A DNA stretch of 64,000 bases from assembly GCF_963921235.1 (NCBI RefSeq), contig NC_086108.1:8246001-8310000 (forward strand). The letters run 5' to 3'. Position numbers and translations under genes: made by a program. The notes under the pieces were generated by a model that made no database searches, was not told where the DNA came from, and saw nothing but the letters and a program-made list of their open reading frames with translations. Positions 4,896 through 33,175 of this stretch are shown here, piece after piece. The stretch is from Mobula hypostoma. Taxonomy: Eukaryota. The first letter of the stretch is position 1. Each line of letters begins with the position of its first letter.

Positions 4896-7029
4896 TTCAG
4901 GGGCAAGTTCTTTACACAGAAAGTGGTGGGTGCACGGAACACCCTGCCTGGGGTGATGGTAAAGGGCAGATACATTAGGGACATTTAAGGGACTTTTAGA
5001 TAAGCACACAGATAAAAGAAAAACAGAGGGCTATGTGCGAAGGAAGAGTTAGATTCACCTCAGAGTAGATTAAAAGGCCGGCACAACATTGTGGGCTGAA
5101 GGGCCTGTCATGTACTGTAACTGTTCTATGTTCTGAAAGTGAGGGATCTCAACTCCAAACATGGGCAAGTAGATTTTTGTTTTTTTTTTCTCGACATGGG
5201 GAGGTCTCAGTTTAACATCTAGTCCAAGAGGAGGCATCTATCAGTGCAGAGGCCCTTTTGTACTGAACGCACCCTCTCAGTCGAGGGGAACCAGCACTCT
5301 TATCAGGGAGGAGACAGCATCCAAGCCTGGACCACCAGACTCAAAAACAGTTACTTTCCCCAAGCAGTGAGGGGAACCTCCACAACCCAACCACCACTAC
5401 GTTATCATATCCTCTCAGTCACCTTATGTACAAACACTCCTGTGCCTAGCGTCACTTTACAGACGTATAATCAATCTATGTATATAAGGCATCTTAAATA
5501 TCTGTATTTTTTTATTACTATTGGGTTCTTTATCTTACTGTATTTTCCATGCAGCCTCTGATCTGGAGTAACGATTATTTTGTTTTCCTTTACACTTGTG
5601 TACTCGAAATGACATTAAATAGAGTCATAGAAAAGTACAGACACAGACCCTTCAACCCATCTAGTCCGTGCTGAACCATTTAAGCTGTCTACTCCCATCG
5701 AGCTGCACCGGGACCATAGCCCTCCAATTCCCTGCCATCCATGGACCTATCCAAACATTGGAATGGTGCTGGCATGCACCACTTGTGCTGGCAGCTCATT
5801 CCACACTCCCAGCACCCTCCGAGAGAGTTTACCCTCATGTTCCCCTTGAACTTTACACCTTTCACCCTAGCACATGACCTCTAGTTGTAGTCGTAGAATC
5901 TTGAATCCTTTTGGACCGTGGTGGGAGGGAGTGGCTTACAGAGAGGAGAGACTCACGCTCGTCTGCTAGGAATGAATCCTCTTGTTACACGTAAGGCAAG
6001 CATCGAGGAACGCTCGGTCCCAGCGTCCGGAACACACTGACGAGCTGGACAGAGGTGTCCGTGGGGAAGCAGGGGGAGCCAGGGTAGCTGACGGGCAGCA
6101 GCTGACATCAGGCTGGGCTTGGGCTCAGCGGCACAGGATGTGAACTGCAGCGAACAGGAAGTCACACAGCGTGGCAAGCGTCTCTCTTCCTGAACCATGG
6201 GCTAACCGCACTCACCTGCCTTTGTTCTGCTGATCGAGGCAAGCCGCTCCCCATGCAAACCCAGAGATTAGCTCTGAAACACCAGACGGTCCCCCCCCAC
6301 CGCCAAAAAGAGGCAAAGAAAGGAACAAACTGCAATTTACCTGTGCACCCTACCCTCCCGCCACTTTGGCACACAGACCTTCAGGTAAAAGCTACAGGAA
6401 GCACAGCCTGCCCTGGGATCCAGGCAGATGAAGTACTCCAGCGGCCGCAGGCTCTCTCCTGCACCTCCCTGTGCGCGGATGGCACCACACTTTAGGTCTC
6501 AGCATCGAAACTACACACTAAATAACCGCACCGCAGCACCACATCAGCTACTGAGCGAGAGGGAAATACTCACAGTTGCCAAGCAACCAGACGAAAGAGA
6601 TTTACTAATGTCAAGGATGGGGAATGGATCTGGGTTTTGGCACTCAGCTTCTGACAACATTTTTTAACCCCTCTTAATGACAATTGAAGCAAGTTTTGCC
6701 AGCAACTGTTCTGGTGCAGTTGTATGATATCCTGGTGCAAACTCTTTCCTGTTCACTCCCTACCACGAAATCCAGAGAATCAAATTCTCTCCCATTCAGT
6801 TCCTGCACAAAATCCTACAGATTACACCCCTTCCCAGTTACTGCAGTATAGAAAAGGCCAGTGAAATATCAAGTTCAAGTTTAATTGCCAAGCAACCATA
6901 CATACATATGCAGTAAATGAAACAATGTTCATCCCAAACCAAGAGGTAGAACAACGACACACAGCACATGTAGTTACGATAGCACATACAGTCACAAAAT
7001 AACGTTAGCACAAGCCTCTGAGAGGCATG

Positions 7030-31329: not shown

Positions 31330-32125
31330 TCACCGCTGTCATTGGCCAAATGAAAGGTGGTGATGAATCAGCATACAGGAGGGAGATTGAAAATCTGACC
31401 GAGTAGTGTCATAACAACAACCTCTCACACAATGTCAGCAAAACCAAGGAGCTGATTATTGACTTCAGGACAAGGAAATTCATGAGCCAGTCCTCATCGG
31501 AGGATGAGAAGTGGAGAGGGTCAGCAACTTTAAATTCCTCAGCGTTAGTATTTCAAAGGGCCTCTCCTGCTCCCAGCATGCAATTACCAACAAAGCATGG
31601 CAGCGCCTCTACTTCCTCAGGAGCTTAAGATTCGGCATGACACCTAAAACTTTGACAACCTTCTATAGATGTGTAGTGGACAGTATACTGACTGGCTGCA
31701 TCACAACCTGGTATCAAAACACCAATGCCCTTGAATGGAAAATCCTACAAAAAGAAGTGGATTCAACCCAGTCCATCATGGGTAAAGCCCTCCTCACCAT
31801 TGAGTACATCTACACGGAGAGCTGTCGCAGGAAAGCAGCATCCATCATCAGGGACCCCCACCGTCCAGGCCACTGATGCCATCAGGAAGGTACAGGAGCC
31901 TCAGGACTCACACCACCAGGTTCAGGAACGTCAGACTCTCGAACCAGAAGATAACTTCACTCAACTTCACTTGCCCCATCATTGAAATGTTCCCACAACC
32001 TATTGACTCATTTTCAAGGACTCTTCATCTCATGTTCTTGATATTTATTCCTTACTTATTTCTTCTTGTATTTGCAGAATTTGTCATCTTCTACACTCAG
32101 GTTGGTGCAATCTTTCATTGAGTCT
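31330..32125 (+). mobile_element. Rex1/Babar LINE 3' fragment; its tail resumes at ~32685 after the Hero-like insertion
   Basis: ERVSNFKFL...RLYFLRSLRFGMTPKTLTTFYRCVVDSILTGCITTWY. Confidence 0.85.
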
Positions 32126-32684
32126 ATAGTCCCCTGGGAAGACAACATCGATGAAGCCCATGGGTGCAAGTTAACCAAGTATGCAGAATTAAGATCAGAG
32201 TGCAGAGACAGAGGGTGGAAGGTCTCATGCTATCCATTCGAAGTAGGTTGCCGTGGGTTTATTGTATTCACTTTCCAGAAGTGGCTGCGTGACCTTGGCT
32301 TCACTAGAAGAGAGATCAAGTCAACCAGCAGGGCTGTAGCTGAGGCAGCAGAGAAAGGATCAGCATGGGTGTGGACCAAGTACGTCCAGAGGGGCAGATT
32401 GTTAGACAGTGTATCTATCTTTTGCAAACCCTTCAGTAGTTGCATAGACACCTGAAGAGCAGACTATCTGTTGGATGGAAGTGACCAACAACTCTGATAG
32501 AGGCAGATGCCAAGTTTTTAAGCTCACCAGTGGGAGGTGGTGCTTTAGCACTGCTGGCCCACCATCTCGAGGGAGTCTTGATCATAAGCGGGCCGAAACT
32601 CCTGAAGACAGGTGGCAGATCAACTGATGATCCCACTGGTGATAGCACAGGACAGTTAACATCTTAGTCCATGTGTATTTTTAA
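32126..32684 (+). mobile_element. 5'-truncated R2-group (Hero-like) non-LTR retrotransposon: restriction-like endonuclease C-terminus plus 3' UTR
   Basis: VPWEDNIDEAHGCKLTKYAELRSECRDRGWKVSCYPFEVGCRGF...AVAEAAEKGSAWVW matches the VPWE..K..KY..L....GW....P.EVGCRGF pattern I recall for Hero endonucleases. Confidence 0.8.
32524..32642 (+). ncRNA. Candidate non-circularly permuted hammerhead ribozyme
   Basis: Stem III GGGAGT(32571-76)/ACTCCT(32598-603); C17 at 32577; stem I TTGATC(32578-83)/GATCAA(32618-23); GAA 32595-97; CTGATGA 32624-30; plus four flanking helices. Confidence 0.7.
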
Positions 32685-32899
32685 TTCTGGTTATTATTCT
32701 ATAAATGTATTGACTATGCCCACAACAAAATAAACCTCAGGGTTGTATATGGTGACATATACAGTACGCACTTTGATAATAAATTTCCTTTGAACTTTGA
32801 GCTCTGGTGTTAAAGGAAGTTAGAATTTCCTTCCTCACCAACGGAGGGGCGGTGGTGCTGGGGAAATTCTGAAACCCTTTCCTCATTCCTCCCCCCCCC

Positions 32900-33175
32900 G
32901 CAAATGTTTCTACGGAAGTGGTTTGCCATTGCCACCTTCTGGGCAGTGTCTTTACAAGATGGGTGCTGCTTGACTTCTGTGGTCACACAACCAGGACTTG
33001 TGATATGCACCAGCCGCTCCCGTGGCTCCACGTGATGCTGATCCCGGGGTCGGGGGGGGGGACAGGGCGGGCTAAGCAGCTGTAACGCCTTGCCCAAGGG
33101 CGACCTGTAGACTAGCGGAGGTAAGGAGTGCCTGATACCTCCTTGGGTAGAGGGGCATCTCCACTCGGCTACCCA
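32900..33175 (-). mobile_element. SINE-like element with RTE-type 3' part
   Basis: Homologous to 2120-2495. Confidence 0.65.

Follow-up and report, generated by a model that had tools for sequence, protein, structure and literature searches.

A candidate hammerhead-class ribozyme motif with novel wiring in the 3′ untranslated region of a probable R2-group LINE of Mobula hypostoma

The 64,000-nt stretch of Mobula hypostoma DNA analysed here (the window; NCBI RefSeq assembly GCF_963921235.1, contig NC_086108.1, positions 8,246,001 to 8,310,000 of the forward strand) contains a 5′-truncated copy of a long interspersed nuclear element (LINE) whose 3′ untranslated region (UTR) carries a 119-nt motif with the parts of a hammerhead ribozyme. 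A reading made from the sequence alone had described these parts as a complete hammerhead core, and every one of them is present where it was placed, on the + strand between 32524 and 32642. The site block (S) reads GGGAGU-C17-UUGAUC (32571–83), the GAAA block (G) GGGCC-GAAA-CUCCU (32590–603) and the CUGANGA block (C) GAUCAA-CUGAUGA (32618–30). Stem I is 6 bp long in the window copy, and stem III is also of 6 bp, including A15.1–U16.1 and one G–U pair. The block order S-G-C, found in the window and in its relatives, bears out the description of the core as non-circularly permuted. The parts of the element and of the motif, and the evidence by which each is placed, are as follows.

32128–32688 (+): 5′-truncated LINE copy of 561 bp, with the end of the open reading frame (ORF), encoding a C-terminus like a restriction-like endonuclease (RLE), and the whole 3′ UTR; comparison of copies
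32524–32535 (+): 5′ strand of the closing helix Pa, 12 bp with 32631–42; covariation, all 12 pairs double-changed
32536–32555 (+): hairpin Ph, 8 bp with a UUUA loop, which abuts Pa on one side and stem II on the other and would be the third arm of the predicted four-way junction; covariation
32556–32560 (+): stem II 5′ strand GGCCC, in which G32556 is G10.1 and is not contiguous with A9; covariation
32562–32567 (+): 5′ strand of Px, the helix tying the far ends of stems I and II, with its partner at 32610–15; covariation
32568–32570 (+): non-bulged strand C-G-A of the putative kink-turn, G32569 being 2n and A32570 1n; conservation
32571–32576 (+): stem III 3′ strand GGGAGU, U32576 being U16.1; covariation
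32577 (+): C17, with the predicted cut between 32577 and 32578; analogy with hammerheads
32578–32583 (+): stem I 3′ strand UUGAUC; covariation
32584–32589 (+): A-rich linker joining stems I and II at their far ends; 0–8 nt in relatives, mostly (U)UAAA-like
32590–32594 (+): stem II 3′ strand GGGCC, C32594 being C11.1; covariation
32595–32598 (+): G12, A13, A14 and A15.1; conservation
32598–32603 (+): stem III 5′ strand ACUCCU; covariation
32604–32609 (+): bulged strand of the putative kink-turn, a GAA bulge followed by G32607 (1b), A32608 (2b) and C32609; conservation
32610–32615 (+): Px 3′ strand AGGUGG; covariation
32618–32623 (+): stem I 5′ strand GAUCAA; covariation
32624–32630 (+): C3, U4, G5, A6, U7, G8 and A9; conservation
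32631–32642 (+): Pa 3′ strand, flush after A9; covariation and the match of covariance model R2
32643–32688 (+): 3′ tail with a small hairpin and UGUAU, then the end of the element; ends of copies

The helix CCATCT/AGGTGG (32562–67/32610–15) of the sequence-only reading, here Px, is present, although the T at 32565 occurs in the window copy alone; at the equivalent position C is found in the other 40 of 41 sampled genomic copies, so that six Watson-Crick pairs form. A 136-nt stretch around the motif folds at −53.5 kcal/mol (z = −3.55 relative to shuffles). Rfam searches, at the gathering score and at E ≤ 10, report no hammerhead or other ribozyme family at the site, as expected because covariance models cannot represent such a strand order. 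A scanner for CUGANGA, GAAA and U-H in any block order, counting the pairs of stems I and III from the core outwards, gives a single match on either strand of the window when both stems are at least 5 bp, and this is the motif site. In 20 Mb of Markov-1 random sequence the scanner makes 30 hits at ≥5/5 bp and six at ≥6/6 bp. The chance expectation for the core with stems I and III is ~0.04 per 64-kb window; with many windows in play the core and two stems are not significant alone, and relatives therefore had to decide.

An alignment of 27 proteins led to 80 metagenome loci encoding relatives at 35–49% identity. In 54 of these (50.9 kb scanned) the region 70–250 nt behind the ORF contains a strict S-G-C core whose stems I and III both reach at least 4 bp, with a constant core spacing of 13–18 nt from H17 to G12, whereas the other 342.6 kb of the same 80 loci, scanned on both strands as a control, contains six hits in mixed order. 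Among the remaining 26 loci, six have an intact core and one stem mismatch (L067, L100, L103, L105, L128 and L081), four are cut by a contig end (L057, L083, L091 and L078) and four have too short a downstream sequence; the others are considered below. A covariance model built from 14 sequences, with its structure limited to Px and stem III (R1), finds the motif, always on the ORF strand, in the window and in 63 of the 80 loci, and a full model that includes Pa and Ph (R2) matches the window at exactly 32524–32642 as well as 57 loci.

Some of the metagenome loci are near-duplicates, and identical rows were merged to leave 62 distinct rows in the R1 alignment. In these A13, A14 and A15.1 are invariant (62/62) and G12 is present in 61; U4, G5 and A6 occur in 61 of 61 rows, G8 and A9 in 60 of 61 and C3 in 58 of 61. 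All four bases occur at N7, and position 17 is U in 23 rows, C in 20 and A in 19, never G. This row pattern is that of textbook hammerhead conservation: the core bases of the class, with H at position 17, are found in the window and in its relatives alike.

The helices are conserved by covariation. Stems I and II took no part in fitting the R1-based alignment, and when they are added as pseudoknots 94.1% of cells are paired, compared with 62.9% in shuffles (none of 500 reaches the observed value) and 38–48% with slid partners. Double changes occur in 21 of the 23 pairs of helices I, II, III and Px. Stem I is 94.8% paired with all six pairs double-changed, stem II 91.9% with four of five (the core-proximal pair is G–C in 51 and G–U in seven of 62 rows) and Px 95.4% with six of six; stem III is 93.9% paired, with A–U at 15.1–16.1 in 61 of 62 rows and C–G at 15.2–16.2 in 58. 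In the R2 alignment all 12 pairs of Pa are double-changed and 82–96% of their cells paired, and Ph is 97.6% paired with seven of seven pairs double-changed; the whole structure with Pa and Ph is 94.1% paired compared with 57.1% in shuffles, and 30 of 31 pairs are double-changed. These counts come from the model-based alignments A5 and A7, the MAFFT alignments A2 and A4 being too poor at helix ends; A7, based on R2, was fitted to Pa and Ph and thus leans towards them, and part of A5 is model-fitted too. An independent control set each strand against the partner region of another sequence with equal freedom of search: own and swapped partners form 11.4 and 2.6 bp for stems I and III together, 8.7 and 4.3 bp for Pa, 6.8 and 4.2 bp for Px and 5.2 and 3.4 bp for stem II.

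Covarying helices I, II and III thus abut the core, with G10.1–C11.1 in place, and A9 is not contiguous with the stem II 5′ strand. The proposal that nearly all of the 119 nt sit in helices and core is supported by relatives, in which the core is kept and six helices covary (94% paired compared with 57–63% in shuffles). Because it is conserved with covariation in distant relatives, the motif is more than a chance arrangement, and it is almost certainly a selected RNA of hammerhead type.

The sequence-only reading had a junction take the place of stem II. The junction stands, whereas the replacement does not: GGCCC/GGGCC is stem II itself, with G10.1–C11.1 kept in 51 of 62 rows and G–U in seven. 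Direct pairing of the bases that follow A9 with those preceding G12, as an alternative stem II, was considered and rejected, as only two or three shifted pairs can form and these are not conserved; UCCCAC.. after A9 cannot pair flush with ..GGGCC (U–C and C–C mismatches). To judge from the pairing pattern, the new feature is that the backbone link A9–G10.1 is broken by what appears to be a perfect four-way junction, where the core, Pa, Ph and stem II would meet. The backbone runs from A9 into the Pa 3′ strand, and from the Pa 5′ strand through hairpin Ph to G10.1. In most sequences the junction has no unpaired bases; the first Pa pair is present in 39 of 41 non-redundant relatives and Ph is a flush closed hairpin in 33 of 41.

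Px begins 0–2 nt after the stem II 5′ strand and its other strand ends 0–3 nt before the stem I 5′ strand in most relatives. A straight coaxial stack of stem III on Px, as the sequence-only reading had drawn it, is excluded by reasoning from the 0–2 nt links at both ends of Px, and these short links led to the adoption of a kink-turn fold-back. Kink-turns have a consensus of a three-base bulge followed by tandem G·A/A·G pairs between a regular helix and a second helix. The GA-rich loop between stem III and Px had been suggested as possibly kink-turn-like, and at the level of sequence the signature is conserved, with G at 1b in 42 of 54 rows, A at 2b in 46 of 54, A at 1n in 53 of 62 and G at 2n in 45 of 62. 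The links in the bulged strand are NNN-GA-N in most relatives, a 3-nt bulge followed by G-A, with G-A beside stem III on the other strand. Only a sharp fold-back would let Px connect stems I and II at their far ends.

The suggested kinship with the rearranged hammerheads of Eckert, Friedrich, Weinberg and Weinberg (NAR 2023; PMC10085705) holds, in that the paper exists and its wiring is related. These authors name the blocks S, G and C and describe a type SGC (HRIMA-1 and a variant) that cleaves in vitro, in which a linker leads from stem I into stem II and a helix connects their other sides. The order in their alignment is S, linker, II 3′, GAAA, III 5′, an optional hairpin, interaction helix (Int) 5′, I 5′, CUGAUGA, II 5′ and Int 3′. 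At most 1–2 bases are inserted between CUGAnGA and its stems in the known alignments, and the block was assumed to be uninterruptible (PMC10085705). The present motif has in common with type SGC the block order, a short linker between I 3′ and II 3′ (0–8 nt here), two core pseudoknots, the conserved core bases, and a helix between the strand that precedes I 5′ and the one that follows II 5′. Three connections differ. Here II 5′ and its Int strand precede block S, whereas the interaction helix of type SGC encloses block C; the Int strand connects to stem III through the kink-turn strand; and A9 reaches II 5′ only through Pa and Ph, whereas the CUGAnGA of type SGC runs straight into II 5′. Block C is therefore not uninterrupted, and among the relatives the sequence that follows A9 is paired with Pa 5′. 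As all other local connections are those of type SGC, the motif can be described as the type-SGC topology circularly permuted, with the opening inside block C. By analogy the RNA would work like a type-SGC hammerhead, yet it lacks one defining feature of the type. Type SGC is known from metatranscriptomes, beside hairpin ribozymes, whereas the present motif is in a LINE of an animal-size genome. The RNA is likely to cleave in vitro at the bond predicted by analogy with hammerheads, after C32577.

The host element is abundant, with at least 1443–1508 first-look candidates (161 nt around the motif) in the 3.48-Gb genome. Its copies vary in 5′ truncation, some reaching further 5′ than the window copy, and share a fixed 3′ end ..GTGTATTTT(G)TAA(C/T)TC, also written ..GUGUAUUUUGUAACUC. 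Longer copies encode RVT_1, a zf-RVT region and a C-terminal RPD..ELTVPWE..K..Y motif, an RLE-like nuclease signature spotted by eye that has no Pfam hit and is invariant in the 27 relatives; together these agree with the earlier placement of the motif behind the ORF of an RLE-type LINE. Among solved proteins those nearest to the element's reverse transcriptase (RT) are R2 and L1 ORF2, and the nearest named proteins are from amphioxus (59–65% identity), sea urchin, teleosts and bivalves. No translated piece has a GIY-YIG domain hit. The predicted domain order and the taxa of the relatives fit an R2-group (RLE-type), Hero-like LINE; the Hero clade is described in PMC4640811 and PMC3636483, and both the relatives' taxa and the absence of an obvious target site agree with the description of HERO in the former.

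Full-length units are found in partial tandems. All 20 sampled full-length 5′ ends (genomic loci L129–L148) follow a partial upstream unit head-to-tail, across one constant junction that joins ..GUAACUCU to UUUGUUCUGG.. (locus position 1500/1501 in each). The unit is ~3.86 kb and the upstream parts are from 14 to at least 1500 bp long. In 12 of the 20 the upstream part is long enough (≥165 nt) for the whole motif, and eight of 20 have no complete upstream motif. Locus L047 is organized in the same way, with an upstream part at 5705–5993 and the next unit from 5994 onward, and in 13 metagenome loci the motif is followed by the next ORF, which lies no more than a few hundred bases away and on the same strand. 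From the constant head-to-tail junctions it follows that cDNAs longer than one unit are the rule. Rfam identifies no HDV-like (hepatitis delta virus-like) or other ribozyme at the unit junction and 5′ UTR of one full-length copy.

Taken together, we consider it probable on balance that the motif is a hammerhead-class ribozyme with novel wiring, in the 3′ UTR and inter-unit spacer of a clade of R2-group, Hero-like LINEs, and that its most likely effect is to trim transcripts to units. The core would form from CUGAUGA (32624–30), GAAA (32595–98) and U-C17 (32576–77), ringed by stems I–III, and would cleave after C32577. The products would be kept together by Pa, stem II, Px and stem III (~29 bp), a clamp that could allow the nick to stay closed or to be rejoined. 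The role is suggested by the genomic layout, in which a partial unit stands before each full-length one (20/20 sampled): in a transcript over a partial upstream unit and a full unit, two ribozymes would delimit exactly one unit, whatever the promoter or terminator. The resulting unit-length RNA with clamped ends, possibly rejoined to a circle, would serve as both message and template, and, perhaps as a circle, would template the longer-than-unit copies. Unit-length processing or circularisation as the role is put forward tentatively. More speculative still is that an autonomous LINE clade of deuterostomes and molluscs multiplies through ribozyme-delimited unit RNA, with the circle closed by the hammerhead or a host ligase, RT running round it and a core that tolerates the A9–G10.1 break; an RT running round a circle would explain the partial unit before every full-length copy.

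Similar arrangements are known elsewhere. Penelope-like elements (PMC4209133, PMC11167929) have a hammerhead between ORFs, tandem or partial-tandem copies and templates that read through the cut site, as here. Their hammerheads are minimal type I, their RT is telomerase-like and their nuclease GIY-YIG, whereas the present element has rearranged wiring and a LINE-like RT, and with its C-terminal zinc knuckle, RLE-like motif and lack of a GIY-YIG hit it is not a Penelope-like element. The 5′ HDV-like ribozymes of R2 and other LINEs (PMC3774820) offer a similar setting, a self-cleaving RNA in an R2-group LINE that is likely transcribed by read-through; they belong to a different ribozyme class and cut at the exact 5′ end of the element, whereas the cut predicted here is 111 nt before the 3′ end. 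In retrozymes (PMC7229834; bioRxiv 10.64898/2026.07.22.740005) tandem hammerheads could delimit a unit-length RNA with ligatable ends, as proposed here, although retrozymes themselves are small, non-autonomous elements whose hammerheads are of classical type I or III, whereas the present element encodes its own RT and nuclease. The literature search found no paper on a hammerhead in an RLE LINE, nor on one with a four-way junction or kink-turn of this kind.

Several observations weigh against a trimming ribozyme. Six of the 26 metagenome loci left over above have one or two core substitutions (C3U in L050 and L075, A6U in L084, G12A in L089, G8U in L123 and C3G with A9G in L107), and six others have no motif despite at least 235 nt of downstream sequence. 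Copy ends were taken from 35 of 39 listed places besides the window; four were left out, two of which (L009 and L021) reach at least the 32128-equivalent. Of the 35 copies 29 extend more than 150 nt upstream and six begin at 32447–32563; none begins at the 32578-equivalent, and all hold the last 111 nt. The earlier suggestion of a cut that would trim or nick the RT template thus finds no support in the copy ends. The accompanying remark, that sequence is kept on both sides of the cut, is true of every genomic copy, so that templates must be uncleaved, rejoined or bridged; the copy ends suit rejoined or uncleaved templates and a non-cutting RNA equally. In four of 24 Logan contig-level runs of guessed type there are no molecule starts or ends and no joint at the site. 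Template jumping without a ribozyme can also make tandems. Mutants of the Penelope-like hammerhead are unchanged in insertion in vitro, and no RNA-seq reads end at its cut (PMC11167929).

Finally, we know of no natural or engineered hammerhead in which the A9–G10.1 link is broken, so that the activity of the present wiring is an assumption.

Another possibility is that the hammerhead fold does not cut at all and is instead a structured 3′ UTR handle for the element's RT, like the pseudoknotted 3′ RNA of R2, with the core kept for its shape. This is a lesser possibility: the motif is positioned where R2-group elements carry protein-binding 3′ RNA (PMC12222951), every insertion continues across the site, with no start at it among 35, the A9–G10.1 break might disable catalysis, and the Penelope-like hammerhead is dispensable for insertion in vitro (PMC11167929). 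A handle of this sort does not readily account for conservation exactly as in active hammerheads (never G17, a free N7, G10.1–C11.1, A15.1–U16.1 and C15.2–G16.2), and protein handles rarely keep 13 single-stranded bases invariant across elements whose proteins are 35–49% identical; the related type-SGC wiring, moreover, cleaves in vitro (PMC10085705).

A role in 5′ release, as for the R2 HDV-like ribozyme, is unlikely. Here the upstream copy would cut read-through transcripts ~286 nt ahead of the start codon, releasing the RNA downstream, and might aid cap-independent translation, with no circle and no ligation. R2-group elements do use 5′ ribozymes to process co-transcripts (PMC3774820), 12 of 20 full-length units have an upstream part able to hold the whole motif, and the motif is between two ORFs in 13 tandem metagenome loci. 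However, the other eight of the 20 lack a complete upstream motif, a ribozyme in the unit's own 3′ UTR would remove the last 111 nt that are present in every insertion, and a strong clamp (Pa of 12–16 bp) is superfluous for simple release. An accident of a structured 3′ UTR in which CUGAUGA, GAAA and UC happen to be in pairing register, for which the ~0.04 matches per random 64-kb window and the very many windows scanned might be cited, has the barest probability and is refuted by the motif in 63 of 80 distant relatives with all helices covarying and the core invariant, and by controls that yield only six mixed-order hits in 342.6 kb.

If the core tolerates the A9–G10.1 break, the permutations open to hammerheads exceed the supposed six, and a ribozyme wired as proposed would be an exception to the rule by which stem II continues CUGAnGA without a gap. 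No earlier hammerhead would have been linked to an R2-group (RLE) LINE, and the non-circularly permuted hammerheads, so far known from metatranscriptomes whose hosts are unknown, would gain a place in animal genomes, where their genetic context is clear. The four-way junction and kink-turn would be a natural answer to a puzzle left by Eckert et al., that of the path by which the interaction helix gets to stem III. Hammerheads together with partial tandems would be common to two unrelated classes of retroelement, the Penelope-like elements and the present LINE clade, making the role of retroelement hammerheads more testable. Searches that presume three uninterrupted blocks will overlook such ribozymes.

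Among the relatives, L050 (2219–2287), L075 (2169–2237) and L084 belong to one lineage and have UUGAAGA (C3U) or CUGUUGA (A6U) with the helices intact; these variants may be weakened or inactive, to judge from the substituted bases. The 1279-nt contig L078 has as its last base the predicted cleavage base C17, after Pa 5′, Ph, II 5′, Px 5′ and III 3′, and its R2 match covers positions 1–57 and is then cut at the 3′ end; as one case among ~6 contigs that stop inside the motif, it is at most a weak hint. Downstream of the ORF, L068 and L070 have no hammerhead motif and contain instead repeated hairpins with GGGAUUAA in the 3′ UTR. The 3′ UTRs of L079, L081, L101 and L104 have stretches that look tRNA-like by eye (GGUUCGA/GGUUCAAAA arms) before or overlapping the motif region; ARAGORN calls no tRNA in them, and L081 keeps the full hammerhead motif with one stem I mismatch. 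Another relative, P0067 (a Tetraodon 'polyprotein'), may be linked to the tandem non-LTR (long terminal repeat) element 'Zebulon' (Bouneau et al. 2003).

Elsewhere in the window, the ORF pieces further upstream belong to other repeats and not to the motif-bearing copy. An ORF fragment at 31508–31876 (+) with a hit to PF09004 (ALKBH8_N) adjoins the truncated copy and is unmatched in the sampled copies of the element; because PF09004 matches fish LINE reverse transcriptases, the fragment is presumably a piece of another LINE. A hairpin at 32843–32900 (+) scores 25 bits for mir-877, below the gathering score of 47 (E = 0.014 in a 601-nt search), and the match is probably due to chance.

In three of the guessed-RNA runs the final ~80 nt of the element have a summed contig depth 10–40 times that of the sequence immediately upstream, and in the fourth, larger run the factor is ~1.3. 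In the three runs the rise is 3′ of about the 32594–32616-equivalent and spans L130:1397–1477 (~32594–32665), per-contig depth being unreadable as an RNA level. The small hairpin and UGUAU of the 3′ tail occur within 75 nt after A9 in 19 of 38 relatives, compared with one of 41 control windows, and may mark the start of reverse transcription. At the start of the next unit, a stretch CUGG..CCAGUGAC..CCAGGAA(A) is kept across distant relatives (L047:5994–6040; L087, L090, L093, L096 and L106), and in the last five of these it lies ~15–25 nt after UGUAU.

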